64,000 nucleotides of DNA, taken from positions 160,001 to 224,000 of the forward strand of contig CAVUKA010000001.1 of assembly GCA_963741945.1 (NCBI GenBank). The letters run 5' to 3'. This document shows positions 4,563-31,197 of this stretch, in pieces; within the stretch, counting starts at the first letter, position 1; every line of letters begins with the position of its first letter. Source of the DNA: an uncultured Gemmatimonadales bacterium. Its GTDB lineage: Bacteria; Gemmatimonadota; Gemmatimonadetes; Longimicrobiales; RSA9. The notes beneath the pieces were generated by a model. That model was given only the letters and a program-made list of their open reading frames with translations, was not told where the DNA came from and did not search any database. The translations under genes were made by a program, and so were the position numbers.

Positions 4563-5896
4563 GGGCCGGCTCCTGTGAAGATCCGGAACAGAAGGTACAA
4601 GTTGAGCGCGATGATCCCGGTGGCGACGAACCAGGCCACGGCCGTGGTCCAGCGATGGTTCACCAGCACACCCATCAGCTCGCCTCGGCGCGTGAACTGC
4701 ACCAGCGGCACCAGCGCGAAGGGGATGCCGAAGGACAGCACGACCTGGCTTAGCACCAGGGTCCGTGTAGGATCGAGCCCCATGGCGATGACGACGATGG
4801 CCGGCGCCATGGTGACCAGCCGCCGCACCCAGATCGGCACGTGCCAGTGCAGGAATCCCTGCATGATGACCTGACCGGCCATGGTCCCGACCGTCGACGA
4901 GGACAGCCCCGCGGCCAGGAGCGAGATAGCGAACACCACGCTCGCCAGCGGACCCAGCAGCGGCGTGAGCGTTCGGTACGCTTCCTCGATGGATGCCACC
5001 TGTGTCAGCCCCGCCTGGTGGAACGTCGCCGCTGCCATGACCAGCATCGCGCCATTGATCAGCCCGGCCAACCCCATGGCGACCGTCACGTCCACGAGCT
5101 GAAACCGGAACAGACGCCGCTTCTGCTCCGCACTCGTGGTGCGGATGCGGTTCTGCGTCAGCGACGAGTGCAGGAAGATGACGTGCGGCATCACCGTCGC
5201 TCCCAGGATGCCCACCGCGAGCAGCACGCTCTCCGTGCCCTGGAACCGCGGCGTGACGGCGCTGGAAAAGAGAGCGCCCCAGTCGGGCCACTCCAGCAAC
5301 GTCTCGACGAGGTAGGAGAGGGCAATGACGCCCACCATCACGGTGATCACCGCCTCGATCGGGCGGAACCCGTAGCGCTGCAGCCCCAGGATCAGAAACG
5401 TGGCGACACCCGTGAGCAGGGCCGCGGGCAGAAGCGGGATGCCGAAGAGCAGGTTGAAGCCGATGGACGCGCCGAGGAATTCCGCCAGGTCCGTGGCAAT
5501 GGCCACCATCTCCGAGACCACCCACATCCCCCAGACCACCGGCCGCGGATACTCGTCCCGGCACACCTCTGCCAGGTTCCGGCCCGTGGCAATCCCGAGC
5601 TTGGCCGAAAGCGTCTGGATCAGCATGGCCGTCACGTTGCTCGCCACGATGACCCACAGCAGCGTGTAGCCGAACGCGGCGCCCGCCTGGATGTTGGTGG
5701 CGAAGTTGCCCGGATCGACATACGCCACCGAGGCGACGAACGCCGGGCCGAGGAACGGCAGCAGCCTCACGTACCACGGCCCACGACCTTCCCCCCGCAG
5801 CACAGCCGATGCCCCGCCCGGGCCGGAGGCGGCCACGTCCTCATTGCCCGGTGCGGCTGCGGCGTCCGCCACACCCTCGCCCTCCGCCGCGCTCAC
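4559..5896 (-). CDS. mntH: Nramp-family divalent metal (Mn2+) transporter
   Basis: AYVDPGNFATN and GATVMPHVIFLHS signatures; GGAGAG RBS before GTG. Confidence 0.95.
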   Translation of the reverse strand: MSAAEGEGVADAAAAPGNEDVAASGPGGASAVLRGEGRGPWYVRLLPFLGPAFVASVAYVDPGNFATNIQAGAAFGYTLLWVIVASNVTAMLIQTLSAKLGIATGRNLAEVCRDEYPRPVVWGMWVVSEMVAIATDLAEFLGASIGFNLLFGIPLLPAALLTGVATFLILGLQRYGFRPIEAVITVMVGVIALSYLVETLLEWPDWGALFSSAVTPRFQGTESVLLAVGILGATVMPHVIFLHSSLTQNRIRTTSAEQKRRLFRFQLVDVTVAMGLAGLINGAMLVMAAATFHQAGLTQVASIEEAYRTLTPLLGPLASVVFAISLLAAGLSSSTVGTMAGQVIMQGFLHWHVPIWVRRLVTMAPAIVVIAMGLDPTRTLVLSQVVLSFGIPFALVPLVQFTRRGELMGVLVNHRWTTAVAWFVATGIIALNLYLLFRIFTGAGP

Positions 5897-12859: not shown

Positions 12860-15025
12860 TCAGCGGCGACCGTTGAACGTCGCCCGCACGCCGAGGTGGA
12901 ACGCGCGGCCCGGCCCCGGCTCGAAGAACCGCCTGCCGAAGGCGTTCACGGCCACGGACGAGATGTAGTCGGTGTCGAGGATGTTGGAGATGCCGGCGAA
13001 GGGATCGACGCGGAGGCCAGGGGCGTCGACCGTCCATTCCCCCCGCACCGACAGAAGGGTGTAGCCGTCGGCAGCGTCGGTATTGGCATCGTCCACGGGC
13101 GTCCTGCCCGAGACCGTGGCATCGAGGGCGATGAGCGCGCGGTCGAGCCGACCGGTCAGCGTGCCTTCGAACCGGTGGGGTGTGACGCCGGGCACACGGT
13201 TCCCGCCATACTGCCTGGCGTCGACTTCGAAGTCGCGGAACCGGGCGTCGGTCCAGGTATAGGCCATGTCGGCCCGCAGGCGTGGCGTGACGGACACGGA
13301 GACGGCCGTCTCCACGCCCTGATGTCGGGTGGTGCCAGCATTTCGGTAGTACTGCCGGCCCGGCGACGTGGCGACCTCGAACGGGATGAGCGCGTCTCGC
13401 ACACGCGCCCGGTAGACTGCGACCTGGTACGTCAGGCGCCCCGCGTCGCCGCGCGCACCGAGCTCGACGGAGGTCGTCCGCTGGGGCTCGAGGTCGGGGT
13501 TGAAGCCACCGGCCGAGTCGGGCCGATTGACCAGCTCGGTCGTCGTCGGCGTCTCGAAGGCGGTCGCGACATTGGCGTAGAGATCGAGGGCGCCGGCGAG
13601 GCGCGCGCGCACGCCGGCCGTGGGACTGAACGCGCTCATGACGCGCTCTCCGCTGTCGTTGGGATCGCCGTCGGTGAACCGATCGCGCGCGCGGAAGCGG
13701 TAGCTGTCGTAGCGTGCTCCGGCAGTGAAGTCGACGTCGTTGCCGATGGGGAGCCGCGTGTGGGTGAAGGCGCCCAGCTGCCGCACCCATTCCACCTGAC
13801 TGAGCACCAGGTCGCCGCGCGCGCCGCCGTCGTTCTCATGGTTGCGCCGGTCGTCCCTCTGGAGCCCCGCCTCGCCGCCGACGGCCACGCCCACGGGCCC
13901 GATGCCACCGAGCCACAGGACGCGGCCTCCGGCGGCCCGACGGTGGAGGTCGATGATGACGGGGGGAATCGGGTTGTCCAGCGTCTTGAGCAGTCCCCAT
14001 CCCGTCAGCTCCACCCGGCCGGCGCCTGTCCGCCGATCCCACCGGAGCCCGACCAGCCCCTGCCGCCCGGCCTCGCTCGTCTTCTGGGCCACATTGGCCG
14101 GATTCGCCTGCGTCGGGTCGGCGCGCAGCTGATTGGCGGTGAGGGAGCCCGGGTTGTCGGCGGCATAGTCGACGAGGGCGCCCAGCGCATCGAGCCGGCC
14201 GCCGGCGAGGGATCCGCTGCCGCGGAAATCGGCGACGGTGCGACTCGATGCGGCGAAGGCGCGGAAGCCATCGACGTGGCGCCGCGTCAGGCGCGCCTGA
14301 TACGCGAAGCCGGCGCTGCGGCCGCCGACGCGCGTGTGGGCGCGCGCCAGGCCACCGCTCCCCGCCAGCAGCCCGGCCTGTACGGCCAGCGGGGCGTCGC
14401 CGGGATCGGTGGTGTGGATCATGACCACGCCGCCGGCCGCGTTGCCATAGATGGCCGAGGCTGGACCCCGCAGCACTTCCACCTCGCGCACCGCGGCCAG
14501 GTCGAGGCGGCTGAGATCGGTCTGGCCGTCGGGCAGTGTGGCCGGAATGCCGTCGATGTAGACCCTCACGCCGCGCACGCCGAACGCGGAGCGGGCGCCG
14601 AAGCCGCGGATGCTGAGCCGGTCACCGAGCGCCTCGTTGTAGCGGTTGTCGGCCTGGAGCCCCGGCACGCCGTGCAGCACGCCCGCGAGCCCCCGATCGG
14701 CGCGCGCGGCCGCGACGCGCTGCGGCCCGAGCACGCTGACCGCGTAGGGCGCCGCGGCCGCCCCGTCATCCGTGCGAACCACGATGGGAGGCAGGGAGAT
14801 GGGGGGCGCGGTGTCCCGGGCGGCTTCGCCTGCGGACGTCTGCGCGGACTGCCGAGCGGCCGCCGTACGGGCGGTATCGGGGACCTGTGCTCCGACGCCG
14901 GCCGGCAGCGCTGCGAGGGCCACGCCGGCCGGCAGCGCTGCGAGGATGGCGCGAGCCGCCGCGCGCAGGTGGAGGATGCGCGGGATGTGGTGCATACGCC
15001 TCGGTGCGAACGGGCGGATCCGCAC
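12860..15025 (-). CDS. TonB-dependent receptor, YncD-like (start may be 14995)
   Basis: Plug motif LSIRGFGARSAFGVRGVRVYIDGIPATLPDGQ...EVLRGPASAIYGNAAGGV; FETPT; FFEPGPGR near the C-terminus. Confidence 0.9.
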   Translation of the reverse strand: MRIRPFAPRRMHHIPRILHLRAAARAILAALPAGVALAALPAGVGAQVPDTARTAAARQSAQTSAGEAARDTAPPISLPPIVVRTDDGAAAAPYAVSVLGPQRVAAARADRGLAGVLHGVPGLQADNRYNEALGDRLSIRGFGARSAFGVRGVRVYIDGIPATLPDGQTDLSRLDLAAVREVEVLRGPASAIYGNAAGGVVMIHTTDPGDAPLAVQAGLLAGSGGLARAHTRVGGRSAGFAYQARLTRRHVDGFRAFAASSRTVADFRGSGSLAGGRLDALGALVDYAADNPGSLTANQLRADPTQANPANVAQKTSEAGRQGLVGLRWDRRTGAGRVELTGWGLLKTLDNPIPPVIIDLHRRAAGGRVLWLGGIGPVGVAVGGEAGLQRDDRRNHENDGGARGDLVLSQVEWVRQLGAFTHTRLPIGNDVDFTAGARYDSYRFRARDRFTDGDPNDSGERVMSAFSPTAGVRARLAGALDLYANVATAFETPTTTELVNRPDSAGGFNPDLEPQRTTSVELGARGDAGRLTYQVAVYRARVRDALIPFEVATSPGRQYYRNAGTTRHQGVETAVSVSVTPRLRADMAYTWTDARFRDFEVDARQYGGNRVPGVTPHRFEGTLTGRLDRALIALDATVSGRTPVDDANTDAADGYTLLSVRGEWTVDAPGLRVDPFAGISNILDTDYISSVAVNAFGRRFFEPGPGRAFHLGVRATFNGRR
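14895..14945. repeat. 24-nt direct repeat (27-nt period) in the receptor signal region
   Basis: acgccggccggcagcgctgcgagg occurs twice and encodes LAALPAGV twice. Confidence 0.8.
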
Positions 15026-15152: not shown

Positions 15153-15434
15153 TCAGGGTTGACCGGATCGCGGACTGCTCAGCTCCTTCCTGAAGTCGCT
15201 CTCCTCTCGCAGGCGCCGGAGCTCGGACTCCGTTCCCTCCAGCTGGTTCTCCAGCAGCGACACCCTGGATTCGAGCGACGCCAGCCGACCCCCGGTCTCC
15301 GGCGTCTGCCGGACCAGCGCCAGAGACTCCACGATCGGTTTGAGCGCGAAGCGAGCGGTGATCCCCGCGACGGGGATGAGGATGACGAGCGTTCCCATGA
15401 TGACCGCGGCGAGCCCTACCCAGTCGATCGGCAT
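15153..15434 (-). CDS. Small single-TM coiled-coil protein
   Basis: GGGGAGG RBS; MPIDWVGLAAVIMGTLVILIPVAGITARFALKP followed by a heptad coil. Confidence 0.75.
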   Translation of the reverse strand: MPIDWVGLAAVIMGTLVILIPVAGITARFALKPIVESLALVRQTPETGGRLASLESRVSLLENQLEGTESELRRLREESDFRKELSSPRSGQP

Positions 15435-18449: not shown

Positions 18450-20393
18450 TCAGCCTCCCAGGATCAACAGGACGAGAAGGATGCCCAGCCCCACCATGAT
18501 GAGGCGGTAATACTGGTGGGCGAGCCCCGTCTGGAGCCGCCGGGCCCACGAGCCCGCGCGGCCCACCAGCCGGGACAGGCCCTCCGGAGCGCCGTCGATG
18601 AGGACTTCCGCCCCCCGCTTCCCGGCCACGGCCAGCCGGGCCGCGGCATCGGCCGCCCACCACACCGTTCCATCCACGACGGCATCATCGAACCGGGCGA
18701 GCAGGCGAGCGCTGTCCCGCGCCACGCCGGGCAGCAGCCACACCGCCCGGTCCAGCACGCCATCATCGAAGCGCGCGAGCAGGTCGGCACACCGCTGAGC
18801 GGGCCGCGCGATGACGAGCCGGGCCAGCGCGGGGAGCCCGAGCCAGTCGGCGGCCGGCGCAGCACCGGCCTCCCCCAGCCGCGGCCGGAAACGCGCAACC
18901 GCCCAGCCGATCGCCACTCCGACCGTGACCAGGAGCAGTGAAGCCGCGAGCTCCCACGCCTCGCTCGACGGCACGATCCCCGCCAGCGCCTCCGCGACTC
19001 GCTGCGCCACGGGCGCGGCCCAGAGCAGCGAGAGCAGTGCGGTGGCGGCCGCGAGCAGGTAGAGCGCCCCGCGTTCTGCCGTGCGCGGCGGGCGGCCGCT
19101 CTCCCCCTCCCCGCACCCCGCTCCGCCGCGGCCGAACGCCTGGAACCAGAAGCGGGCCATGTAGGCGGCCGAAAGTCCACCGGCGATGCTCACGGCCACC
19201 GCCAGCCACGGGGAAGCGTGCCCGGCCGCGGTCACCACCTCCTCCTTCGTCCAGGCGGCTCCGAGGGGGGGCACACCGGCCAGCGCGGCCGCGGGGAGCG
19301 CGGAGGCAATGGCCACCCCGGGCAGCGCGCGCCCCAGCTTCATCCCGGGCAGGCGATAGCTGCCCGTGCAGCCGTGAGCGACTCCCGAGGCGAGGAAGAG
19401 CGGCGCCTTCGCCAGTGCGTGGGCGACGAGGTGGAGCACCGCCACGGCGGGATACCCGGCGCCCACGGCTACGAACATCAGGCCGTAATGGGCGGAGGTG
19501 GAGCCGGCCAGAAGTCGCTTGGCATGGGGCTGGAGGAGGGCGACGAGCCCGCCCGCCAGTGCCGTGGTCACGCCCACCGCCATGGCCGCCGGCCCGAACC
19601 AGGCCACACCGCCGAGCACCGGCTCCAGTCGGATAAGCAGGAACGCCCCGGCGGCCACCATGGTGGCCGCGTGGAGCAGCGTGGAGACGGTCACCGGCCC
19701 TTCCATGGCCGCGAACAGCCACGGCGCAAACGGCAGCTGCGCCGACTTCGCCGCGGCCGCGGCCAGCAGCCCCGCCGCTACCAGGTGGAGCGGCAGCCCG
19801 GTAAGGCCGGGCAGCGCCCCGTAGCGCAGCGAACCCGCACCGGCGAACGCAGCGACCACGGCCAGGAACATCCCCAGGTCGCCCGCGCGCGTGGTGAGGA
19901 AGACCACCGCCCCCGCCCTCGCCTTCCCGCGCTCCCACCACCCGTGGGCCACCAGCAGCGCCGAGCAGGCGCCGATCACTTCCCAGCCGACCACCAGCGT
20001 GAGCAGGTCCGCCGCCCCCGCAACCAGCTCCATGGCCCCCGCGAAGAACGTGAGCAGCACCAGCAGACGCCGCAGTCCTCGCGCCTCCTCGTGGTAGGCC
20101 GCGTACGCCACCACCGGGGCGGCGACCAGCGGTACCAGGACGGCGAAGATCGGCACCACCGGCGAGGTCCCATAGGCGTAATCCAGCGACAGGCCCAAGT
20201 CGGCCGCCCACAGAAGCCGACCGGTCCAGCCATGGACGCCCGCCAGCCCGGCCAGTGCGGCGGTGGCGACCATGGTTCCCGTGCTCAGCACGGCCAGCGG
20301 CGCTCGCCCACCCCTCCCATCTCCACGGGCGAGCCCCGTCAGCCCCAGCAGCAGGGCGCCGAAGACCGGAAGCAGGGGAACCAGCCAGGCCAT
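18450..20393 (-). CDS. nuoL: NuoL-like antiporter subunit
   Basis: GWEVIG, AKSAQLPFAPWLFAAMEGP..VSTLLHAATMVAAG, HALAKAPLF, WTKE, long lateral helix ending RLQTG. Confidence 0.88.
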   Translation of the reverse strand: MAWLVPLLPVFGALLLGLTGLARGDGRGGRAPLAVLSTGTMVATAALAGLAGVHGWTGRLLWAADLGLSLDYAYGTSPVVPIFAVLVPLVAAPVVAYAAYHEEARGLRRLLVLLTFFAGAMELVAGAADLLTLVVGWEVIGACSALLVAHGWWERGKARAGAVVFLTTRAGDLGMFLAVVAAFAGAGSLRYGALPGLTGLPLHLVAAGLLAAAAAKSAQLPFAPWLFAAMEGPVTVSTLLHAATMVAAGAFLLIRLEPVLGGVAWFGPAAMAVGVTTALAGGLVALLQPHAKRLLAGSTSAHYGLMFVAVGAGYPAVAVLHLVAHALAKAPLFLASGVAHGCTGSYRLPGMKLGRALPGVAIASALPAAALAGVPPLGAAWTKEEVVTAAGHASPWLAVAVSIAGGLSAAYMARFWFQAFGRGGAGCGEGESGRPPRTAERGALYLLAAATALLSLLWAAPVAQRVAEALAGIVPSSEAWELAASLLLVTVGVAIGWAVARFRPRLGEAGAAPAADWLGLPALARLVIARPAQRCADLLARFDDGVLDRAVWLLPGVARDSARLLARFDDAVVDGTVWWAADAAARLAVAGKRGAEVLIDGAPEGLSRLVGRAGSWARRLQTGLAHQYYRLIMVGLGILLVLLILGG

Positions 20394-20397
20394 CGCG

Positions 20398-20703
20398 TCA
20401 GCCTTCCAGGGTGTCCAGCCCCTCGGTGGTGTCGGCCTGACGGTTCCGGTAGACCGCCACCACCAGCGCGAACCCCATCGCCATCTCCACTGCCATGATC
20501 GCCATGATGACGATCGCCAGCAGCTGTCCCCGGGGCGCGAAGCCCGACGCCATGGCCCAGAACGCCACGGTCGCCAGGATCAGCCCGTTCAGGATCAGCT
20601 CCAGCCCCATCATCAGCATCACGAACGACTGCTGCGAAAGCGCGCCGTACACGCCGATCCCCACCAGCACGGCCGCAACCACCAGGAGCGCCGGCAACGT
20701 CAT
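20398..20703 (-). CDS. nuoK: NuoK-like subunit
   Basis: 101 aa, three TM helices, MGLELILNG and AVEMAMGFALVVAVYR keep both conserved Glu. Confidence 0.88.
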   Translation of the reverse strand: MTLPALLVVAAVLVGIGVYGALSQQSFVMLMMGLELILNGLILATVAFWAMASGFAPRGQLLAIVIMAIMAVEMAMGFALVVAVYRNRQADTTEGLDTLEG

Positions 20704-21266
20704 GGCCGCCTCCCTGTCGGCTCGCCGCCAGGCTCCAGCCCGGGCGGGCGCGATCCCACGTCGGCGGGGCCGTAACGGCCGCGTCGGCTGGAGAGGATGA
20801 CAGTGCCGATCATGGCGGCGAGGAGCGTGACGCCGGCGGACTCGAAAACGAGCATGGAGCTGCCGAGGAGCTCGACGCCCAGGGCGGCGATCGGGTCGGC
20901 GGGCGGCGTCGAGCCCGCCCGGTGGAACGGAACGCCCAGCCCGACCGCCGCGAGGATGCCGCCCACGCCGACAGCGGCGGCCAGGGCGGTCGCGGGCTGG
21001 TGGACCATGTTCATCGGGTTGAGCCCGGCCGGGTTCATCATGAACATGACCATGAACAGGGCCATGACCATCATCTCGACGGCCATCATGAAGATGAGTG
21101 CGAAGCCGAGGTAGGGCGCGGCCAGGAGCAGGAGGATGGCGGCGACGGCCACGAACGACGTGAGCAGGTAGAAGGAGGCGCGAACCATGGAATCGGTGCG
21201 GAACACCCGCCAGCCGGTGACGATGGCGAGCGCGGCGAAAGCCCAGAACAGCGCGTCGATCGCCAT
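20700..21266 (-). CDS. nuoJ: NuoJ-like subunit, Met-rich
   Basis: MAIDALFWAF...; FESAGVTLLAAMIGTVIL matches the last NuoJ TM; TGATG overlap with nuoH. Confidence 0.8.
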   Translation of the reverse strand: MAIDALFWAFAALAIVTGWRVFRTDSMVRASFYLLTSFVAVAAILLLLAAPYLGFALIFMMAVEMMVMALFMVMFMMNPAGLNPMNMVHQPATALAAAVGVGGILAAVGLGVPFHRAGSTPPADPIAALGVELLGSSMLVFESAGVTLLAAMIGTVILSSRRGRYGPADVGSRPPGLEPGGEPTGRRP

Positions 21267-22198
21267 CAGAACAGGGCCACGAGGCCGGCTTCCAGGAGCC
21301 CCAGGAACGAAAGCGGGAGCAGGCCCAGCCAGACCAGGGAGACCACGCGCTCCGTGGCGATGCGGGCCGTGCTCCTGCCGAGGAAGGCGAGCAGCGTCAG
21401 GACGGCCAGCGTCTTGACGGCGAGCCAGACCGGTCCCGGAAGCCACGGCCCCAGCCACCCACCCAGGAACACCGTGGCCGCCACGGCGGAGAACGCCACG
21501 AGCATCGCGCGCCGGGCGAACTCCCAGACGAGCCTCGAAATGCCCGAGACCTCGGATGACGCCCCGCCCGCCAGGTCCGCGCTGTCGGCGAAATCGAGCG
21601 GTCCCCAGAAGGCGACGCCGAGCCCGACGAAGAGGAAGAGCGGCAGTCCGAGGGGCTGTCGGACCACGTTCCACACCCCGTGCTGGGACTCGACGATCGC
21701 CGACAGCCTCAGCGATTCCGCCGGGAGCGCGGCCGCGATGAGGACGAACATGCTCACCAGCATGTAGGTCAGCCCGAGGGCGACGTAGCGGTATCCGCCG
21801 ATCAGCGACAGGTGCGCGTTCGCGGCCCAGCCGTGAAGGAAGATGACCACCACCGCCAGTGCCTCGACGGAGCCCCAGAGCACGATCCCGGCGGCGACAT
21901 CCGCCGGCGCCAGCGCGCTCGACCATGGCACTGCCGCCAGCCCCACCACCGCCAGCGCCAGGTAGAGCGAAGGCGCCAGCATCCAGGCGGGCGCGTCGGG
22001 CCGCTCGGTCCGGTTCCGCTGCTGCACCAGCAGGAAGGCCGCCTCCCGGAGCGGAGCCAGGAGAACCGGCCCCGACGAGCGACCGGCCACGGCCGCCGCG
22101 GCGAGCCGGTCCAGGATGGCAAAGCCCCACACGCCGGCCAGTGCGGCGGCGGCGAGCACCCCCACGGTCGTAGCCGTCCCCGCCGTGGCCGGAATCAT
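21266..22198 (-). CDS. nuoH: NuoH-like subunit (divergent)
   Basis: GWAANAHLSLIGGYR, SLRLSAIVESQ.GVWNVVRQPLG, TVFLGGWLGP, VKTL; ATGA overlap with the upstream gene. Confidence 0.82.
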   Translation of the reverse strand: MIPATAGTATTVGVLAAAALAGVWGFAILDRLAAAAVAGRSSGPVLLAPLREAAFLLVQQRNRTERPDAPAWMLAPSLYLALAVVGLAAVPWSSALAPADVAAGIVLWGSVEALAVVVIFLHGWAANAHLSLIGGYRYVALGLTYMLVSMFVLIAAALPAESLRLSAIVESQHGVWNVVRQPLGLPLFLFVGLGVAFWGPLDFADSADLAGGASSEVSGISRLVWEFARRAMLVAFSAVAATVFLGGWLGPWLPGPVWLAVKTLAVLTLLAFLGRSTARIATERVVSLVWLGLLPLSFLGLLEAGLVALF

Positions 22199-23301
22199 GC
22201 CCCGCCTTCCGCTGTGGGAGTCAGGTCGGCGGCCACCACCACCAGGCACGCCTCGCTCCACTCGAGGCCGGGCAGGTGCTCCGCCAGCCACGCGGCCGCA
22301 TCCGCATGGCCGCCGGCCACCGCGTTGTCGAACGCCGCCGGATCGCCGGCCGCCGTGGACAGGAGGCCATGCAGGTGCGAGCGGACCGTGCCGCCCCCGG
22401 GCAGGGGCACGGCCGGGAGCGCGGGCAGCGTGGCGCCGAAGCGCACCAGCGACTGGAGCCGGCGCACGCGGGACGCGGTGAGGTCGGGGGCGAGCGCGGC
22501 CGTGAGCGCGCGGTCGGCCAGGGCGTGCGCGCCCGCCATGTCCAGGATCCAGGCCGCGCGACGCAGGCGGACGCGCGCCCCGGCCACGTCCACGTCCGCG
22601 CGGCGAGCGGAAGCGCGGCCCCCACCATCGCTTACGGCCGAAACGGCCCGGGGGTACGGTGGCTCCAGGAGCTCCGCCTCCTGCACCACGTCGCCCTGGA
22701 GCACGAGCCGGAGCACGAGTCCGGGGGGGAACGACGGAAAGAAGGGACCGATGGTGAAGGAGAGCTGATCGAGGGCGAGACCATCGCGGATGTCGTCGGC
22801 CGTCATGGCCATCGGGCGACCGTACGGCTTCCCCCCCATCATCCCTTCCCCGCCCTGCCCGTGATCGCCGAGTCCGCGCCACGGGTTCGGCGGGCGGTCC
22901 GGCAGCCACGCCGGCTCGGACGCTCGATCCCCGCGCAGCACTGCGCTGTGGAGCCCCCGCAGCGCGGGGAGCGGATCGTCGTCACCGGGGACCACCTGGC
23001 CGCTGGCGACCGACGCGCCCCCGCCGTGAAGATCCGGCTGTGGCGCGTCATCGCCCCAGTACAGCGTGGCCCGGGGGTGCGGGATCTGGTCGTGGACGCG
23101 GGCGAGCGCGGCCCCGAATCGTGACGGCACCCAGCCCGCCACCATCAGGATCGTCGCATGCCGTGGCGATCGGACGAGCCGCAGGTCGCGCCGGAGCGAA
23201 AGCGCCTCCACCCGGTCCCCTGCCCCCTCGCCGATGGCCGGGAAGATGGGCACCGGGGCGGCCGCTGCCATGGCCCCAAGCCAGCGGCGCAGCGCGCTCA
23301 C
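22195..23301 (-). CDS. Compact NuoB/NuoD-like fusion protein lacking Fe-S ligands
   Basis: SPRHATILMVAG...ALARVHDQIPHPR and VVPGDDD are NuoB-like; IGPFFPSFPPGLVLRLVLQGDVV and LPGLEWSEACLVVVAADL are NuoD-like; GTG start overlaps the nuoA stop. Confidence 0.72.
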   Translation of the reverse strand: MSALRRWLGAMAAAAPVPIFPAIGEGAGDRVEALSLRRDLRLVRSPRHATILMVAGWVPSRFGAALARVHDQIPHPRATLYWGDDAPQPDLHGGGASVASGQVVPGDDDPLPALRGLHSAVLRGDRASEPAWLPDRPPNPWRGLGDHGQGGEGMMGGKPYGRPMAMTADDIRDGLALDQLSFTIGPFFPSFPPGLVLRLVLQGDVVQEAELLEPPYPRAVSAVSDGGGRASARRADVDVAGARVRLRRAAWILDMAGAHALADRALTAALAPDLTASRVRRLQSLVRFGATLPALPAVPLPGGGTVRSHLHGLLSTAAGDPAAFDNAVAGGHADAAAWLAEHLPGLEWSEACLVVVAADLTPTAEGGA

Positions 23302-23678
23302 TGCCACCGGAAGATCCCTTCGCGCCAGCCGTAGACAATGCCGACCGAGAGGATCGTGAGGAACATCCCCATCTCGACGAGCGCCTTGATCCCCTCGCGG
23401 ACGTAGACCACGGCCCACGGATACATGAACATCATCTCCATCTCGAACGCGATGAAGAGCAGGGTCATGGAGTAGAACCGCACGTGGTAGCGGCTCCACG
23501 CGTGCGTCGCCGGCTCACCACCGCCGAGGAACGGCGCCTTCTGCGGCCCGGTCAGCGCACGCCGGTCGGCGCGGGTCAGCCCCAGCTGCACGGCAAGCGC
23601 AAAAGCGGCCGCCGTCCCGAACACGATGAGCAGGTTGAGGAGCATGCGCATTTGATTCCGTTTGCGCGCCGCAAGCAT
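23298..23678 (-). CDS. nuoA: NuoA-like subunit (start may be 23651 or 23645)
   Basis: PFLGG...YHVRFYSMTLLFIAFEMEMMFMYPWAV...YGWREGIFRW; GGAGG RBS. Confidence 0.85.
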   Translation of the reverse strand: MLAARKRNQMRMLLNLLIVFGTAAAFALAVQLGLTRADRRALTGPQKAPFLGGGEPATHAWSRYHVRFYSMTLLFIAFEMEMMFMYPWAVVYVREGIKALVEMGMFLTILSVGIVYGWREGIFRWQ

Positions 23679-23821: not shown

Positions 23822-25057
23822 ATGGCACAACCGAACGTGCTGGCGATCGTCCTCGCCGGAGGCGAGGGGAAGCGGCTGCAGCCGCTCACGCGGGACCGGA
23901 CCAAGCCGGCGGTCCCGTTCGGCGGAGACTACCGGCTCATCGATTTCGCCCTCTCGAACCTGGCCAACGCCGGCTTCCTGCACATTGTCGTGCTGACGCA
24001 GTACAAGAGCCACAGCCTGGACGTGCACCTGGGGAAGGCGTGGCGCATGTCGCCGATCCTGGGCAACTACGTCATCTCCGTGCCCGCCCAGATGCGGACG
24101 GGGCCGCAGTGGTTCGCGGGCTCCGCCGACGCCATCTACCAGAACCTGAACCTGATCGGCGACGAGCGGCCGGAGCACGTCATCGTCTTCGGCGCGGACC
24201 ACATCTACCGCATGGACCCGCGCCAGATGCTGGACGAGCACGTGGAAAGCGGCGCCGGCGTGACCGTGGCCGGGATCCGGGTCCCCCGCTCCCTGGCCAG
24301 CCAGTTCGGCATCATCGAGCCTTCCGCCGACCGCCGGCGCATCGAGCGCTTCCGGGAGAAGCCGCCCGAGGCCGAGGGGCTCCCCGACGCGCCGGACCAG
24401 GTCTTCGCCTCCATGGGCAACTACCTCTTCCGCACGGACACGCTCGTGGAGATGGTCACCCGTGACGCCGAGGACCCGGACTCCCGGCACGACATCGGCG
24501 GCGACATCATCCCCCGGCTCGTGGACGCGGCCGACGCCCACGTCTACGACTTCGCCGACAACGACGTCCCCGGCGCCACCGACCGCGACCGCGGCTACTG
24601 GCGCGACGTGGGGACGCTGGAAGCGTACTACGACGCCCAGATGGACCTGGTCTCCGTCGATCCCATCTTCAATCTCTACAACCGGCAGTGGCCGATCCTC
24701 ACCGCGCGGGACCCCGCTCCGCCGGCCAAGTTCGTCTTCGCCTCCCACGGCCGCACCGGCCACGCCCTGGACTCCATGATCTCCGCGGGCGTGGTCATCT
24801 CCGGCGGCGAGGTGCGCCGCTCCGTGCTCTCCCCCGGCGTCTACGTGCACAGCTACGCCAGCGTCGAGGACTCGGTCCTCATGCACAACGTGGACGTGGG
24901 CCGCCACGCCATCGTCCGGAATGCCATCATCGACAAGAACGTGCGCATCCCAAGGGGCGCCCGCATCGGGGTGGATCCGGAAGTGGACGCCGCCCGGTTC
25001 CATGTCACGGAGCGTGGCATTGTCGTCATCGGCAAGGGCCAGACGGTGGCGCCGTGA
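23822..25057 (+). CDS. glgC: Glucose-1-phosphate adenylyltransferase
   Basis: [42 protein letters not shown]. Confidence 0.96.
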
Positions 25058-26250
25058 AAGTGGCGCTCTGCACACGGGAGTACCCGCCGGACGTCTACGG
25101 CGGCGCGGGAGTCCACGTGGAGCACATGGCCCGCGCCCTGGCCGACCTCGCCGACGTGGCGGTCCACTGCTTCGGCCCGCCCCGGCCCGACCCGCTGGTG
25201 GCCGCCACCTACCAGCCGTGGGACGCGCTGGATGGCGGGGCCCCGCACCTGGCCGCGCTGCGCACGTTCTCCGTGGACCTCTCCATGGCCGCGGGCGTCC
25301 GTGGCGCGGACGTGGTGCACACGCACACGTGGTACGCCAACCTGGCCGGCCACCTGGCGAAGCTCACGTACGGCACCCCGCACGTCATGACCAGCCACAG
25401 CCTGGAGCCGCTCCGGCCGTGGAAGGAGGAGCAGCTGGGCGGCGGCTACCGCCTCTCCCTCTGGGCCGAGCGCACGGCCGTGGAAGCCGCCGACGCGGTC
25501 ATCGCCGTCTCACGGGGCATGCGCGACGACATCCTCCGCTGCTACCCCGCCGTGGCGCCGGAGCGCGTGCACGTCATCCACAACGGCGTGGATGCCGACG
25601 TGTACCGGCCGGATGCCGGCCGTGACGCGCTGGCGCCCCTCGGCATCGATCCAGACCGGCCCACCACCGCCTTCGTGGGACGGATCACCCGCCAGAAAGG
25701 CCTGCCGCACCTGCTGGACGCCGCGGAGCTGCTCGTGGAAGGGAGTCAGCTGGTCCTCTGCGCCGGGGCGCCGGACACCGAAGAGATCGGCCGCGAGGTG
25801 GCCGCGCGGGTGGACGCGCTCCGCTCGGCCGGGCGCCTCTCCGTCGTCTGGATCCCGGAAATGCTGCCGCCGCAGCAGGTGACCCAGGTCCTGGCCGCCT
25901 CCACGGTCTTCGTCTGCCCGTCCATCTACGAGCCGTTCGGGATCGTGAACCTGGAGGCCATGGCGTGCGGCACACCCGTCGTCGCTTCCGCCGTGGGCGG
26001 GATCCCCGAGATCGTGCTGGATTCGGAGACGGGGTGGCTCGTCCCGTTCGAGCAGGGCGACGATGCCTTCGGCTCACCGGCCGACCCCCCGGCGTTCGCC
26101 CGTGACCTGGCAGCCCGGATCAACGCGCTCCTCGAAGACCCGGAAGCAGCCGCGGCCATGGGCCGGGCAGCACGGGAGCGGGCACTGGCCGACTTCGGCT
26201 GGCCGGCCATCGCCGAGCGGGTCCTCACCCTCTACCGCTCGCTGATCTGA
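25054..26250 (+). CDS. glgA: GT4 glycogen synthase / alpha-maltose-1-phosphate synthase (actinobacterial GlgA/GlgM type)
   Basis: [59 protein letters not shown] overlap with glgC. Confidence 0.9.
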
Positions 26251-26668: not shown

Positions 26669-29600
26669 ATGACCAGGAGTCACTGGCGTACGGCTCTGTT
26701 CGCCATGCTCGCGTTCCCGGCGGCGCTGTTTGCGCAGGACCGGGGCTCGATCGCGGGTGTGGTGACGGCCGAGGACACGAATGAGCCCCTGCAGGGGGTT
26801 CAGATCCAGCTGAAGGGAACGGGTCAGGGAACACTGACCAACCAGACGGGTGGGTTCCTGTTGACGAACGTCCCCGTGGGCGAGCAGACGCTGCAGTTCA
26901 CGTCCATCGGGTATGCGACGGTGTCGCGGACGGTGACGGTGGAGTCCGGCGCCACGTCGACGGTGCGTGTGTCGATGGCGACGGACGTGCTGGGCCTGGA
27001 CGAGATCGTGGTGGTCGGGTACGGGAAGGAGAAGCGGCGGAACGTGACGGGGGCGATCTCGAGCGTGTCGCCATCGGAGATCTCCGAGCAGATCCCGGCG
27101 CCGAACGTGGAGAACGTGCTGCAGGGCCGTGTGGCGGGGGTGCAGGTGGTGCAGAACTCGGGCAGCCCGGGTTCGGCCATGACGATCCGGGTGCGCGGCA
27201 CGGCATCGATCACGGCGGGCAACCAGCCGCTGTACGTGGTGGACGGCGTGCCGATGATCCAGGGCAACTTCTCGACGCTGGACAACCTGTACGGCGGTCA
27301 GGGGATCGATGCGCTGGCGGATCTGAACCCGAACGAGATCGAATCGGTGGAGGTCCTGAAGGATGCGTCGGCGGCGGCGATCTACGGGTCGCGCGCGTCG
27401 AACGGTGTGGTGCTGATCACCACGAAGAAGGGCGTGGTGGCGGACCGTCCGAAAGTGCAGTACAGCGCGTACTACGGGCAGCAGGAGGCCTGGCGGATCC
27501 CGGGCTTCACGAACGCCGTGCAGTACATGGACGTGACGAACGAGGGGTACGCCGCGTACGTGCAGCAGGCGTACGGCATGACGATCCCGGACTTCTTCGA
27601 CTGGGGTTATGGCGTTCCCGGGATCGACGCCTACATGAGCTACGACAACGACAACGTCAACAGCTGGTACGAGATCCCGGCGGGGACGGATACCGACTGG
27701 CTGCGTGCCATGCTGCAGACGGCGCCGGTATCGAACATGTCCGGCTCCATCGCGGGTGGTAACGAGAAGGCGCGCTACTACATCTCCGGGACCTGGTTCA
27801 ACCAGGACGGGATCGTCCAGGGGTTCGGGTACAACCGGGTGAACGGCCGGATCAACCTGGACTACAGCGTGACGGACGCGGTCACGCTGGGGACCAACGT
27901 GGCGCTGACGCACGCGGTGACGGACCGGATGGCGAGCGACAACACCATTTACGGCCCGTTCTCCAACGCCATCGCCAACGCGCCCATCGATCCGATCTAC
28001 GCGAATCCGGAGAAGACGGAGTTCAACTACAACACGTCGTACGCGAACCCGGTGGCGCTTGCGAACAAGAACTCCGCGGAAGAGCGCAACGTCCGAATCC
28101 TGGGCAACGCGTTCGCCGACTGGAACTTCATGCAGGGGCTGGACGCGAAGGTGAGCGTGGGGCTGGACCATTACGCGCTGCGCTCGCGCTCCTACGACTC
28201 GCCGGAGGTGGGTCCTGCCACGGGCTCGAACGGCCAGGCGTACGCGGGCAACTCCTTCGCCAGCAAGCTGGTGACGGAAGCCACGGTGAACTGGATCCGT
28301 GACCTGGCGGAGAACCACAGCTTCTCCGGCGTCGTCGGGACATCGTACGAGCAGAACACCACGGAGACGGACTGGGTGACGGGGACGAACTTCCCGTCCA
28401 GCGCGTTCCGCTATCTCACGTCGGCGGCGAGCATCACGGGCGGCAGCTCGAGCCTCACCGACTGGTACCTGCTCTCCTTCTTCGGCCGCGCGTCGTACAC
28501 GTTCGCGGACCGGCTGACGGCCACGTTCAACATCCGGACGGACGGCTCCTCGCGCTTCGGCGCGAACAACCGCTATGGCGTGTTCCCTTCGGGCTCGCTG
28601 CTGTGGCGCGTGACGGACGAGCCGTTCATGGGGGACCAGACGCTGCTGAGCAACCTGGCGCTGCGCGTGAGCTACGGGCGCACGGGGAACCAGCAGGGGA
28701 TCGGCAACTTCGCGTCTTGGGGGCTGGTGGGCACCGGCTACAACTACGAGGACACGCCGGGGACGGCGCCGGCGCAGCTGGCGAACCCGGACCTGAGCTG
28801 GGAGAAGACCACACAGTTCAACGTGGGCGGCGATGTCGCCTTCCTGAACGGGCGGCTGGGCTTCAGCGCCGATTACTACATCAAGAACACGACGGACCTG
28901 CTGCTGGACCGGCCGATCCCGTATTCCACGGGCTTCGCGCTGATCACGCAGAACATCGGTGCGGTGAACAACAAGGGCGTGGAGCTGACGGCCACGGCCA
29001 AGCTGGCGCAGGGACCCGCGCGCGGCTTCAACTGGACGGCCGAGATGAACGTGAGCGCCAACCGCAACGAGGTGACGGCGCTGTACGGAGACAACCCGCT
29101 CAACTACGGCTTCGTCAGCCGCGTCGAGGTGGGGCAGCCGCTGGGCGTGTTCTACGGCTACGTCACCGACGGTCTGTTCCAGGCCGATGCCGAGGCGTGC
29201 CACGACCCCACGGGCGCGACGTGCGCCGGGACGGGGACGGGGTACCAGAGCTACTACACCACCGCCGGCGACATCCGCTTCAAGGACCTGAACGGTGATG
29301 GTTTGATCACGTCCGAGGACCGGGCCGTGATCGGCTCGCCGTGGCCCGACTTCCAGGGCGGCTTCACCAACACAATGTCGTTCGGGGGCTTCGACCTGAA
29401 CGCCTTCTTCCAGTTCTCGAAGGGGAACGACATCTACAACGCCACCCGGATCTACACCGACCAGTTCGGTGGGTACTGGGACAACAACTCGGATCGCGCG
29501 CTGGACCGGTGGACGCCGGAGCACACGGACACGAATCAGCCCCGGGCGATCTGGTACGACCTGCCCAACAACGCGCGGGACTCCGACCGGTTCGTGGAGG

Positions 29601-29848
29601 ACGGCTCGTACGTCCGGCTGAAGAACCTGGTACTCGGCTACACGCTGCCGAATGAGGTGGCGGGGAAGCTGGGCTTCAGCCAGTTCCGCCTCTACGTCCA
29701 GGGGCAGAACCTGATGACGTGGACCAACTACAGCGGCTTCGACCCCGAGGTGAACTACGCGGGCGATGCCAACGTCACGCGGGGCACGGACTTCTACACG
29801 CTGCCACAGGCCCGGACGCTGTCCTTCGGCGTCAATCTCGGGCTGTGA
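26669..29848 (+). CDS. susC: SusC/RagA-family TonB-linked outer membrane transporter
   Basis: N-terminal extension domain, LDEIVVVGYG, PLYVVDG, LKDASAAAIYGSRASNGVVLITTKKG, NPDLSWEKT, GFDPE. Confidence 0.95.
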   Translation: MTRSHWRTALFAMLAFPAALFAQDRGSIAGVVTAEDTNEPLQGVQIQLKGTGQGTLTNQTGGFLLTNVPVGEQTLQFTSIGYATVSRTVTVESGATSTVRVSMATDVLGLDEIVVVGYGKEKRRNVTGAISSVSPSEISEQIPAPNVENVLQGRVAGVQVVQNSGSPGSAMTIRVRGTASITAGNQPLYVVDGVPMIQGNFSTLDNLYGGQGIDALADLNPNEIESVEVLKDASAAAIYGSRASNGVVLITTKKGVVADRPKVQYSAYYGQQEAWRIPGFTNAVQYMDVTNEGYAAYVQQAYGMTIPDFFDWGYGVPGIDAYMSYDNDNVNSWYEIPAGTDTDWLRAMLQTAPVSNMSGSIAGGNEKARYYISGTWFNQDGIVQGFGYNRVNGRINLDYSVTDAVTLGTNVALTHAVTDRMASDNTIYGPFSNAIANAPIDPIYANPEKTEFNYNTSYANPVALANKNSAEERNVRILGNAFADWNFMQGLDAKVSVGLDHYALRSRSYDSPEVGPATGSNGQAYAGNSFASKLVTEATVNWIRDLAENHSFSGVVGTSYEQNTTETDWVTGTNFPSSAFRYLTSAASITGGSSSLTDWYLLSFFGRASYTFADRLTATFNIRTDGSSRFGANNRYGVFPSGSLLWRVTDEPFMGDQTLLSNLALRVSYGRTGNQQGIGNFASWGLVGTGYNYEDTPGTAPAQLANPDLSWEKTTQFNVGGDVAFLNGRLGFSADYYIKNTTDLLLDRPIPYSTGFALITQNIGAVNNKGVELTATAKLAQGPARGFNWTAEMNVSANRNEVTALYGDNPLNYGFVSRVEVGQPLGVFYGYVTDGLFQADAEACHDPTGATCAGTGTGYQSYYTTAGDIRFKDLNGDGLITSEDRAVIGSPWPDFQGGFTNTMSFGGFDLNAFFQFSKGNDIYNATRIYTDQFGGYWDNNSDRALDRWTPEHTDTNQPRAIWYDLPNNARDSDRFVEDGSYVRLKNLVLGYTLPNEVAGKLGFSQFRLYVQGQNLMTWTNYSGFDPEVNYAGDANVTRGTDFYTLPQARTLSFGVNLGL

Positions 29849-29859
29849 GGAGAAGGCAT

Positions 29860-31197
29860 ATGAGACACCGTACAATGGCATGGATCGCCGCCCTCGGCCT
29901 GCTGGCTGGCGCGTGCGATAGCCCGCTGGATGTGACGCCGCGGGCGTCGGTGAAGGAGGAGGAGGCGTACGACGAGCCGGCGGAGCTGAACATCGCCGTG
30001 ATGGGACTGTACGACGGCCTTCAGGACGCGGACGGCGCCTACGGGCGCAACACCGTGGTCTACCCGGACCTGTACGCGGACGCGCTGGACTTCACCGGCA
30101 CGTACCAGACTGACCGGGAGGTCGACCAGCACACGGTCACGGCGGAAAACGTGGCCGTGGAGGAGATCTGGGCCGACTTCTACGACGTGGTGAACCGGGC
30201 CAACAACGTGCTCGCCGCGGCGCCGGCGCTGGCCGATGAAGCCGGGCAGGACGACGTGGACGGCTGGATGGCGCAGGCGCGCTTCGCCCGGGCGCTGGCC
30301 TACTTCAACCTGGTGCGCTTCTTCGGCGGCGTGCCGCTGGTGCTGGATCCCACGTGGGACCTGGGAGGCGACTTCCAGCCCGCGCGGGCCACGGCGGCCC
30401 AGGTCTACGCCCAGATCGAGACGGACCTGACGGGCGCCATCCCGGCGCTGCCGACCTCCGGCTCCAGCTACACCGCCACGACGTGGGCGGCGGAGATGCT
30501 GCTGGCGAAGACGGAGATGGAGCAGGGCGACTACGCGTCGGCGCTGACGCACGTGGGCGATGTCATCGACCGCGGGCCGTTCGGCCTGCCGGCGAACTAC
30601 GCCGACGTGTTCAGCGTGAGGGACAACGACGAGATGGTCTTCGCCCTCCACTACACGGTGAACGACAACAACAACCTGGCGTTCTGGTTCTTCGCCGAAG
30701 GCTATGGCGGCCGCTGGGGCTTCGCCCCGAGCAGCGCGCTGGAGAACGCCTACGAGGGGAACGAGCGCTATGATGCCTCCATCGCCTACGACAACTACTA
30801 CGGCGAGGTCTTCGGCACCAAGTTCCACCGCATCGCCGCAGGTGACGACGACGTGCCGGTCCTCCGGCTCGCCGACGCCTACCTGATGCGCGCGGAGGCG
30901 AACCTGTTCGAGGGCGCCACGGCGGCCACCGTCCTCGATGACATCAACGTGGTGCGCCAGCGTGCCGGCCTGGCCGGCCTGGACGCCGGCACGGTGAACA
31001 CCCAGGCGCAGCTCGTCGGCGCCATCGCACACGAGCGATTCGTCGAGCTGGCCATGGAAGGGCACCGCTTCTTCGACCTGCGACGCCTCGGCCTGGCCGA
31101 GAGCACCCTGGGACTGGACGCGACCCAGCTCCTGTTCCCGGTGCCGCAGCGGGAGATCGATGTGAACCCGAACCTGGTGCAGAACCCGGGCTACTGA
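29860..31197 (+). CDS. susD: SusD/RagB-family lipoprotein
   Basis: Lipobox LAGAC, ARFARALAYFNLVRFFGGVP, ERFVELAMEGHRFFDLRR, QNPGY end. Confidence 0.95.
   Translation: MRHRTMAWIAALGLLAGACDSPLDVTPRASVKEEEAYDEPAELNIAVMGLYDGLQDADGAYGRNTVVYPDLYADALDFTGTYQTDREVDQHTVTAENVAVEEIWADFYDVVNRANNVLAAAPALADEAGQDDVDGWMAQARFARALAYFNLVRFFGGVPLVLDPTWDLGGDFQPARATAAQVYAQIETDLTGAIPALPTSGSSYTATTWAAEMLLAKTEMEQGDYASALTHVGDVIDRGPFGLPANYADVFSVRDNDEMVFALHYTVNDNNNLAFWFFAEGYGGRWGFAPSSALENAYEGNERYDASIAYDNYYGEVFGTKFHRIAAGDDDVPVLRLADAYLMRAEANLFEGATAATVLDDINVVRQRAGLAGLDAGTVNTQAQLVGAIAHERFVELAMEGHRFFDLRRLGLAESTLGLDATQLLFPVPQREIDVNPNLVQNPGY

Follow-up and report, generated by a model that had tools for sequence, protein, structure and literature searches.

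A methionine-rich relative of the complex I membrane arm as a candidate proton-driven copper exporter

Respiratory complex I, the Mrp antiporters, and the copper pump CusA provide the framework for the system described here, an eight-gene operon resembling nuo genes in a 64,000-nucleotide stretch of DNA from an uncultured Gemmatimonadales bacterium (contig CAVUKA010000001.1, positions 160,001 to 224,000; this whole stretch is referred to as the window). In complex I, the third transmembrane helix (TM3) of NuoJ lies on the central axis, where its hydrophobic residues gate the proton path, and the TM3-4 loop, placed between the two arms of the enzyme (peripheral and membrane), touches the TM1-2 loop of NuoA; furthermore, the Q-like cavity of related complexes encloses other substrates, e.g., sodium (passages on these elements in PMC10212512). 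In Mrp, MrpA adopts the NuoJ fold in its C-terminal domain, and the key Na+-binding glutamate (Glu) occupies the position of the TM3 tyrosine (Tyr) of complex I, beside a histidine (His) of MrpC and the TM5 Glu of MrpD, according to the parts of PMC7419157 dealing with this site. CusA relays Cu(I)/Ag(I) from the cytosol through three transmembrane methionine (Met) pairs, which share TM4 with the proton-relay aspartate (Asp), and is driven by the proton gradient (passages of PMC8092243). Moreover, a complex I-like cassette is located inside a copper-resistance operon of Marinobacter atlanticus, where its seven genes rise with copA and other cop genes, and Eddie et al. (2021) suggested, in the passages concerned, that the cassette might gain energy from the redox chemistry of copper or serve to restore redox cofactors (PMC8233155). 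The operon of the window encodes a stripped-down complex I relative that, judging from its sequence and that of its homologues, probably moves copper across the membrane rather than serving respiration.

The operon lies on the minus strand and comprises nuoA, a predicted nuoB-nuoD fusion (hereafter B-D), nuoH, nuoJ, nuoK, nuoL, nuoM, and nuoN in this order; the genes are tightly coupled, their start and stop codons overlapping or abutting. The central observation is a segment of 28 residues in NuoJ, translated from the coordinates in Table 1, that contains 11 Met. Against the background Met rate in the 35 other open reading frames (ORFs) of the window (280 of 15,677 residues, 1.79%), a stretch of 28 residues with 11 or more Met has a binomial probability of 9.6e-13, or approximately 1.5e-8 when multiplied by all windows of residues; furthermore, the G+C content of this region is approximately 70%, so that the single Met codon is rare. 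Met accounts for 7.9% of NuoA, 7.9% of NuoJ, and 8.8% of NuoK, and for only 1.6–2.4% of the residues in the B-D fusion, NuoH, NuoL, NuoM, and NuoN. After NuoJ, the Met-richest 28-residue segments are those of NuoA (6 Met) and NuoK (5 Met), all other ORFs having at most 4. The original prediction of an extreme Met cluster in NuoJ, echoed by the motif FEMEMMFMYPW in NuoA and by two Met motifs in NuoK, is thus upheld in each of the three proteins. It had also assigned the cluster to NuoJ TM3, and this stands for approximately nine of the 11 Met, which lie within or at the edge of the helix (residues 53–76 in a low-confidence monomer model; predicted local distance difference test [pLDDT] 61), and not for M85 and M87, which this model places in the TM3-4 loop.

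The extent of the family was determined through NuoJ, for which a search at E ≤ 1e-3 gave 1687 homologues among 8000 candidates scored; the best 120 are 62–84% identical and include those of Halomonas, Novosphingobium, Altererythrobacter, Algiphilus, and Bowmanella. A scan of 185,579 species genomes (one genome per species) revealed 478 encoded relatives, and the locus counts given below rest on 80 loci of these, in 48 genus-level groups. All eight genes recur, in unchanged order, in 72 of the 80 loci, the remaining eight being cut by contig ends, and the operon is also found in Marinobacter aromaticivorans (L061). Conservation was computed on 68–77 distinct sequences per protein, and most Met positions are conserved at 0.96–1.0. 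In NuoJ (77 distinct sequences), M60, M61, M65, M68, M72, M76, M77, M85, and M87 are conserved at 1.0, as are E64 and H89, with M74 at 0.97 and M66 at 0.65. In NuoA (73 distinct sequences), M71, M80, M82, M83, M85, M103, and M105 as well as H59 and H65 reach 0.99–1.0; in NuoK, M29, M32, M67, and M70 are at 1.0, M31 at 0.96, M74 at 0.84, and M76 at 0.37. More than 20 conserved Met are thus found in NuoA, NuoJ, and NuoK together. Among 90 full-length NuoJ representatives of 50%-identity clusters, in which Met was counted in 41 TM3 columns, 51 have 8–13 Met, 33 have the canonical motif with 0–4 Met, four have the same loop motif as the Met-rich family with only 1–6 Met, and two are misaligned. 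Met-rich NuoJ also occurs in Actinomadura, in a metagenome-assembled genome of Acidobacteriota, and in Balneola. Other arrangements were noted within the family: NuoH and Met-rich NuoJ form one polypeptide in three proteins (P0153, P0185, and P0189; PF00146 then PF00499), and Salinicola peritrichatus has two whole operons approximately 39 kb apart on NZ_PZJU01000019.1, one (L015, 122588–143145) and the other (L031, 83240–103797), of which one copy lies beside multicopper oxidase, CopB, and Egt genes and one beside DUF411 and DUF326.

The columns that read VYAGAI in Thermus Nqo10 and Escherichia coli NuoJ, which the original prediction had correctly named as the normal TM3 motif and which is of the type carried by the 33 canonical representatives, read MMAVEM in the window. 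The column of the complex I gating Tyr is thereby Met61, and the invariant Glu64, which is new in the Met-rich family, follows three residues on. E79 and E81 of NuoA fall in the columns held by the acidic pair in solved NuoA/NdhC chains, and E35 and E/D73 of NuoK align with both Glu of Thermus Nqo11, residue 73 being Glu or Asp in every motif variant listed. These conserved acidic residues of NuoA, NuoJ, and NuoK are flanked by Met. In addition, invariant His residues are new in the TM1-2 loop of NuoA (H59 and H65) and after TM3 of NuoJ (H89, within the loop motif NPAGLNPMNMVHQ). NuoH, whose closest solved relative is E. coli NuoH (2e-26), has YM in the column of the E. coli YE, within the motif YMLVSM, and its Met are conserved to differing degrees (M146 0.52, M150 0.99, and M232 0.96). 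Residues for proton transfer are retained further along the arm: the NuoL residues that we take to be the TM5 Glu, TM7 lysine (Lys), and TM8 His, together with two Lys columns further on, are all conserved in 77 sequences; the presumed acidic TM5 residue of NuoM (Asp), two Lys, and the presumed TM12 Glu columns are conserved in 76 sequences; and three Lys columns are kept in NuoN. The Pfam matches of NuoA, NuoH, NuoJ, NuoK, NuoL, NuoM, and NuoN all exceed gathering scores (PF00361 three times). At the level of NCBIfam equivalogs, NuoA (78 bits; cut-off 163), NuoH (119; 399), NuoJ (49; 154), NuoL (261; 556), and NuoN (319; 333) remain under the cut-off, NuoK passes one model (64.5 vs. 57 bits), and NuoM passes a subfamily model (470 vs. 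264 bits).

The second gene of the window has no Pfam match itself, and its GTG start was set from 75 homologues, all of which begin alike. Over a core of 45 residues, a profile built from 41 homologues matches NuoB/PSST chains (8e-9), the AlphaFold (AF2) model (pLDDT 83.5, predicted TM-score [pTM] 0.83) retrieved only NuoB-type chains among the top 50 in Foldseek when the whole model was used, mostly with a TM-score to target of 0.4–0.6, and PF00346 (49 kDa/NuoD) is matched by 17 of the 41 homologues (best 5.6e-10) and PF01058 by six. On the basis of these profile and model matches, the second gene is a predicted NuoB-NuoD fusion. An Atlas search with the C-terminal half gave a PF00346-bearing cluster with a score of 0.82, which is a lead and not the basis for the NuoD link. 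Across the 80 loci, the fusion occurs in short forms of 291–380 residues, including that of the window (370), and in long forms of 405–495 residues; the NuoD-like segment is kept in the long forms and is missing from the short form of the window. Long forms sometimes carry long His- or Met-rich inserts, e.g., 28 His in L019. The fusion has 0–7 cysteines (Cys) per protein in 75 homologues, none in eight of them and one in the window, and no invariant or near-invariant Cys column was found in 41 aligned sequences; therefore, the NuoB iron-sulfur (Fe-S) cluster cannot be present. What is almost invariant is a Gly- and Met-rich loop (GGEGMMGGKPYGRPMAM in the window). Furthermore, nuoC, nuoE, nuoF, nuoG, and nuoI are found neither in the operon of the window nor in two annotated plasmid copies.

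The surroundings of the operon in other genomes point to copper. The flanking ORFs of the 80 loci were clustered and the recurrent clusters were named by Pfam, with the proteins of a Halomonas plasmid as further queries. The commonest clusters are multicopper oxidase, CopB, cupredoxin, DUF411, and cytochromes c, followed by DUF326, DUF305, outer-membrane efflux protein, and two-component regulators. Copper-family genes flank the operon in 36 loci; two more came from NCBIfam models run on 14 of the 44 loci that lacked a copper-family match, so that copper-family, Cus, or Mer genes flank 38 of the 80 loci, in 27 of the 48 genus-level groups. Multicopper oxidase or CopB genes alone flank 23 loci in 18 groups. 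Such genes would be expected in approximately 1% of random 12-kb flanks, a rough estimate from 1–3 cop loci per 4-Mb genome and not a computed control. CusC-CusB-CusA is encoded directly upstream of the operon in Novosphingobium (L042), and merA and a MerP/CopZ-like gene are directly upstream in Brevirhabdus pacifica (L039, 5152–7319). Both plasmid copies sit within copper islands: the neighbors on the plasmid of Halomonas sp. KO116 are DUF411, copC, copD, an azurin-like gene, a two-component pair, multicopper oxidase, and copB, whereas the Acuticoccus plasmid has multicopper oxidase, DUF411, an HMA protein, and a heavy-metal P-type ATPase, with cueR 1.5 kb upstream and TolC, a copper oxidase, cupredoxin, and a copper-binding protein downstream. 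The co-location of homologous operons with cop/cus genes that the original prediction had proposed to look for is thus found on both plasmids and in the 38 loci. CDF transporters are near the operon in five loci, and transposases occur in some flanks. Separately, egtB and/or egtD are present in the downstream flank of 17 of the 80 loci (8 of the 48 groups), directly after nuoN where coordinates were read (e.g., L003, L005, L006, L008, L013, L016, L017, L022, and L024), and egt genes also follow the operon on the Halomonas KO116 plasmid (L081, 25870–28142); this gene order hints at a functional tie between the complex I-like operon and ergothioneine, a copper-binding thiol. No shared regulator site was detected upstream of nuoA, since 8-mer enrichment in 77 upstream regions gave only the ribosome-binding site of Halomonadaceae and the start codon, and no CueR-type box was established in these regions.

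Metal-binding appendages are fused to the complex itself. A His-rich tail (at least 3 His) follows in 65 of the 71 NuoJ homologues with the PPGL motif, often with runs of 6–14 His, and in 17 of 75 B-D fusions; the NuoJ tail of B. pacifica comprises 131 residues with 21 His. Of 14 long Met-rich NuoJ proteins in a distant branch, six contain PF19335 heavy-metal-binding domains (HMBDs), between one and six each, and these are placed either in the TM3-4 loop or within the C-terminal tail. By homology, the NuoJ TM3-4 loop, the NuoA loop, the Met loop of the B-D fusion, and the His-rich and HMBD appendages are all placed on the cytoplasmic side, grouped around what was the quinone chamber, and appendages on such loops therefore fit capture of metal inside the cell.

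These lines of evidence make a role of the complex I-like family in copper or soft-metal handling highly likely. More specifically, comparison of sequences gives about an even chance that the complex is a Mrp-like, proton-driven exporter of Cu(I), perhaps also of Ag(I). We infer the metal path, direction, and substrate in this scheme, in which protons would flow in through NuoL, NuoM, and NuoN and Cu(I), possibly Ag(I), would flow out. Briefly, metal in the cytoplasm would be caught, either by tails rich in His on NuoJ and the B-D fusion or by the HMBDs fused in distant relatives, and would enter the former quinone chamber, where, by homology with complex I, the Met loop of the B-D fusion, His59/His65 of NuoA, and Met85/Met87/His89 of NuoJ would meet to form a loading site. 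It would then pass along the central axis by the Met-flanked E79/E81/E102 of NuoA, E64 of NuoJ, and E35 and E/D73 of NuoK, with a Met standing at the spot in NuoJ TM3 held by the gating Tyr in complex I and by the sodium-binding Glu in Mrp. Proton flow through NuoL, NuoM, and NuoN would power the metal step, and the metal may be released at the periplasmic side to the multicopper oxidase, CopB, cupredoxin, or Cus proteins encoded alongside in many genomes. The original prediction of the E-channel as a Met-lined soft-metal conduit is thereby carried in part: the Met are conserved and flank acidic residues, cop/cus genes are neighbors, and the proton residues of NuoL and NuoM are kept; the continuous Met-lined lumen and copper as the substrate are hypothetical. 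That this is a new class of metal transporter, i.e., the membrane arm of a complex I converted to export Cu(I)/Ag(I) at the expense of the proton gradient, with the quinone chamber as the place of metal loading and the E-channel as a Met/Glu relay, falls slightly short of an even chance, and the same applies to its inclusion of a spread on copper-resistance islands in at least Pseudomonadota, Actinomycetota, and Gemmatimonadota.

Several observations weigh against copper export by such a relay. When TM3 is drawn as an ideal helix, its nine Met do not gather on one side (resultant 0.19); M61, M65, M68, M72, and M76 form one stripe near E64 and M66, M74, and M77 lie opposite, although a buried central NuoJ helix could use both Met faces. 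The canonical TM5 Glu column of NuoN is leucine across the family; the passage from the E-channel to the first antiporter module has therefore been remodeled, and coupling to the antiporter modules may differ. Six residues earlier in the same part of NuoN (residues about 118–142), a conserved Glu is found in a DTMEL motif. No established periplasmic exit from the complex I E-channel is described in the relevant passages of PMC10212512 and PMC7419157. The Met loop of the B-D fusion is modeled with pLDDT <50, as for a flexible loop. The window protein NuoJ stops directly after the conserved PPGL..GEP motif, with 0 His in its tail, and the B-D protein of the window has no His tail either. Poly-His tails are, moreover, equally characteristic of proteins that handle Ni, Zn, or Co, so that they do not settle the substrate. 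No metal gene was found flanking 42 of the 80 loci, including 12 of the 14 scanned with NCBIfam, and no cop, cus, or mer gene was found by Pfam among the 33 further ORFs of the 64-kb window. Finally, locus counts are not independent events because of shared ancestry and mobile islands.

Among the alternatives, it is conceivable, albeit unlikely, that the complex serves copper homeostasis without being a copper conduit, by pumping H+/Na+ to sustain membrane potential or pH under copper stress or by acting as a membrane sensor. Co-location and co-expression with cop genes would be equally expected in that case, the retained acidic residues of the axis and proton residues of NuoL and NuoM are what a pure proton or sodium machine needs, and the absence of a single Met face on TM3 is in line with it. 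In this reading, the Met would shield or adjust the acidic residues of the axis, taking up stray Cu(I) or oxidants; protection alone, however, leaves unexplained why fused HMBDs, poly-His tails, and the Met loop all lie on the cytoplasmic face, and why Met occupies the gating Tyr position, where Mrp binds its cation. A variant that draws on copper redox chemistry meets the difficulty that no redox cofactor site is left, given a B-D fusion without conserved Cys and an operon encoding no Fe-S or flavin subunit. The copper oxidases encoded nearby are periplasmic by family, whereas the cap is cytoplasmic by homology.

A metal transporter of other substrate or direction is somewhat less probable again; copper import for copper enzymes, export of Ag, Hg, Ni, Zn, or Co, and transport of a metal-ergothioneine complex come into question. 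The merA and merP genes directly upstream in Brevirhabdus (L039), the CDF transporters near five loci, the poly-His tails, the egtB/egtD genes downstream in 17 loci and on the Halomonas plasmid, and the frequent cupredoxin and cytochrome c neighbors are all compatible with such a substrate or direction. Nevertheless, copper-resistance genes (multicopper oxidase, CopB, Cus, cueR, and DUF411) dominate the flanks rather than uptake or Ni/Zn systems, the appendages on loops cytoplasmic by homology fit capture inside the cell, and Met-only ladders best suit Cu(I)/Ag(I), to judge from the passages of PMC8092243 on such sites. The weakest alternative, that flexible hydrophobic Met side chains plug or reshape the E-channel of a degenerate complex that hitch-hikes on mobile islands, could appeal to the 42 loci and the window copy without metal genes, to the transposases in some flanks, and to three metagenomic NuoJ sequences (P0154, P0139, and P0138) that keep the family Glu and the NPAGL..HQ loop motif with only 1, 3, and 4 Met in the TM3 columns, but is very improbable in view of more than 20 Met codons that are near-invariant across Pseudomonadota, Actinomycetota, and Gemmatimonadales at approximately 70% G+C, the independent appendages (poly-His tails in 65 of 71 homologues and HMBD fusions in a distant branch), the association in 27 of 48 genus-level groups, and the co-expression with cop genes reported in the passages of PMC8233155. 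Proton-driven export of Cu(I) along the Met-flanked axis thus continues to be preferred.

The features of the operon and its surroundings in the window are compiled in Table 1.

Table 1. Positions of the Met-rich operon, its motifs, and neighboring genes in the window.
Feature	Position	Strand	Remark
nuoA-like gene, 126 aa	23298..23678	-	PF00507 at 5e-24
NuoA TM2 motif FEMEMMFMYPW	23415-23447	-	Coordinates checked
NuoA invariant His59 and His65, TM1-2 loop	23484-23504	-	Conservation across 73 distinct sequences
Predicted nuoB-nuoD fusion, 370 aa	22195..23307	-	GTG start overlaps nuoA stop by 8 nt
B-D fusion Met loop GGEGMMGGKPYGRPMAM	22804-22854	-	Conserved in homologues
nuoH-like gene, 310 aa	21266..22198	-	PF00146 at 5e-39
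NuoH motif YMLVSM	21749-21766	-	
nuoJ-like gene, 188 aa	20700..21266	-	PF00499 at 3e-19
NuoJ Met cluster, residues 60-87	21006..21089	-	Most of TM3 and the TM3-4 loop
NuoJ TM3-4 loop motif NPAGLNPMNMVHQ	20997-21035	-	Contains H89
nuoK-like gene, 101 aa	20398..20703	-	PF00420 at 2e-16; Met beside both conserved acidic residues
NuoK Met motif, first	20599-20622	-	
NuoK Met motif, second	20473-20508	-	
nuoL-like gene, 647 aa, long C-terminal extension	18450..20393	-	PF00361
nuoM-like gene, 493 aa	16964..18445	-	PF00361; TIGR01972 470 bits, cut-off 264
nuoN-like gene, 473 aa	15542..16963	-	PF00361; TIGR01770 319 bits vs 333
93-residue ORF	15153-15434	-	
TonB-dependent receptor	12860-15025	-	Best model PqqU, below cut-off
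MntH-type Nramp Mn2+ transporter	4559-5896	-	
glgC and actinobacterial-type glycogen synthase	23822-26250	+	651 bits vs 458 and 548 vs 302
SusC/SusD-like pair	26669-31197	+	
RND pump and outer-membrane factor	47252-52790	-	RND pump at 47252-50347

The ribosome-binding site GGGAGGA precedes the ATG of nuoA, and the operon is bounded upstream by the divergent glgC/glgA pair, which has no obvious operon link, and downstream by the 93-residue ORF. The latter, whose N-terminal stretch is hydrophobic by eye, was rejected as a member of the system since it has no counterpart in the 80 loci and belongs to no family. The TonB-dependent receptor downstream of nuoN was likewise rejected as a copper receptor; its best model is that of PqqU and no copper-receptor model matched. 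The RND pump scores below the cut-off as a CusA/CzcA type and also as a multidrug type. The Nramp transporter and the SusC/SusD-like pair are further genes of the window.

As for novelty, co-location and co-expression with cop genes are already in print for one Marinobacter, as stated in the passages of PMC8233155 concerned. In the literature searched, which lay outside subscription journals, no account was found of an axis lined by Met, of the B-D fusion and its Met loop, of His tails or HMBD fusions, of how widely the family occurs, or of a transport hypothesis. If copper export is true, the complex would join P-type ATPases, RND pumps, and CopB/PcoB-type outer-membrane proteins as a fourth bacterial architecture for exporting copper, and would explain a gene set that is now annotated as NADH dehydrogenase subunits inside copper islands. 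It would also be a natural experiment for complex I, in which the antiporter modules remain intact although the module for electron input has been lost and the gating helix rewritten; coupling of the E-channel to NuoL, NuoM, and NuoN and its possible opening to the periplasm could be followed with a heavy ion visible by spectroscopy instead of a proton. Furthermore, one scheme would apply to Mrp (sodium), complex I (quinone), and the Met-rich family (soft metal), with different substrates in the same chamber and axis.

Compared with complex I, the Met-rich family has homologous NuoA, NuoH, NuoJ, NuoK, NuoL, NuoM, and NuoN in the usual gene order, retains the acidic residues of NuoA and NuoK and the Lys-Glu-His chain of NuoL and NuoM, and keeps the NuoB fold and NuoD remnants in its cap. 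By contrast, its operon is devoid of NuoC, NuoE, NuoF, NuoG, and NuoI, B and D are fused without Fe-S cysteines, NuoJ TM3 reads MMAVEM instead of VYAGAI, more than 20 conserved Met are present in NuoA, NuoJ, and NuoK, new invariant His residues are located in the loops of NuoA and NuoJ, and most subunits remain under the NCBIfam equivalog cut-offs. Owing to the lack of an input module and of Fe-S ligands, the rewritten gating motif, and the sub-cut-off equivalog scores, it is not complex I proper. The 11-subunit NDH-1/Fpo type, which lacks the N-module only, differs as well in having separate Fe-S NuoB, NuoC, NuoD, and NuoI, whereas B and D are fused and Cys-poor here and NuoC and NuoI are absent. 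The Marinobacter atlanticus cassette is nuo-like, has a "hypothetical" second gene, and is flanked by and co-expressed with copper-resistance genes; it differs in being described as seven genes without nuoM and nuoN, and the passages of PMC8233155 on it are silent on Met clusters and on any passage of copper through the complex. This cassette (ACP86_11540-11570) probably belongs to the same family, matched by its description in those passages only.

The likeness to CusA is one of chemistry only, in the proposed Met relay beside acidic residues, with an unrelated fold: PF00873 there, against PF00499, PF00420, and PF00507 here, and no protein of the operon matches the RND fold PF00873 in Pfam. 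Mrp resembles the Met-rich complex as a redox-free assembly of antiporter-like subunits with NuoK-like and NuoJ-like parts, and its cation site, placed through the complex I alignment and the description in the passages of PMC7419157, would correspond to the spot of Met61/Glu64 here, amid the Met of NuoK and NuoA. On the other hand, the Met-rich family keeps NuoH, NuoA, and the B-D cap, which are absent from Mrp, has three antiporter-like subunits, and would offer Met and Glu as ligands where Mrp has Glu and His; the NuoL of the window scores better as NuoL than as MrpA in NCBIfam. MrpB, MrpE, MrpF, and MrpG have no match among the eight operon proteins, and the complex is therefore not a member of Mrp. 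In architecture, the Met-rich complex is most like Mrp, and in chemistry, it is most like CusA.

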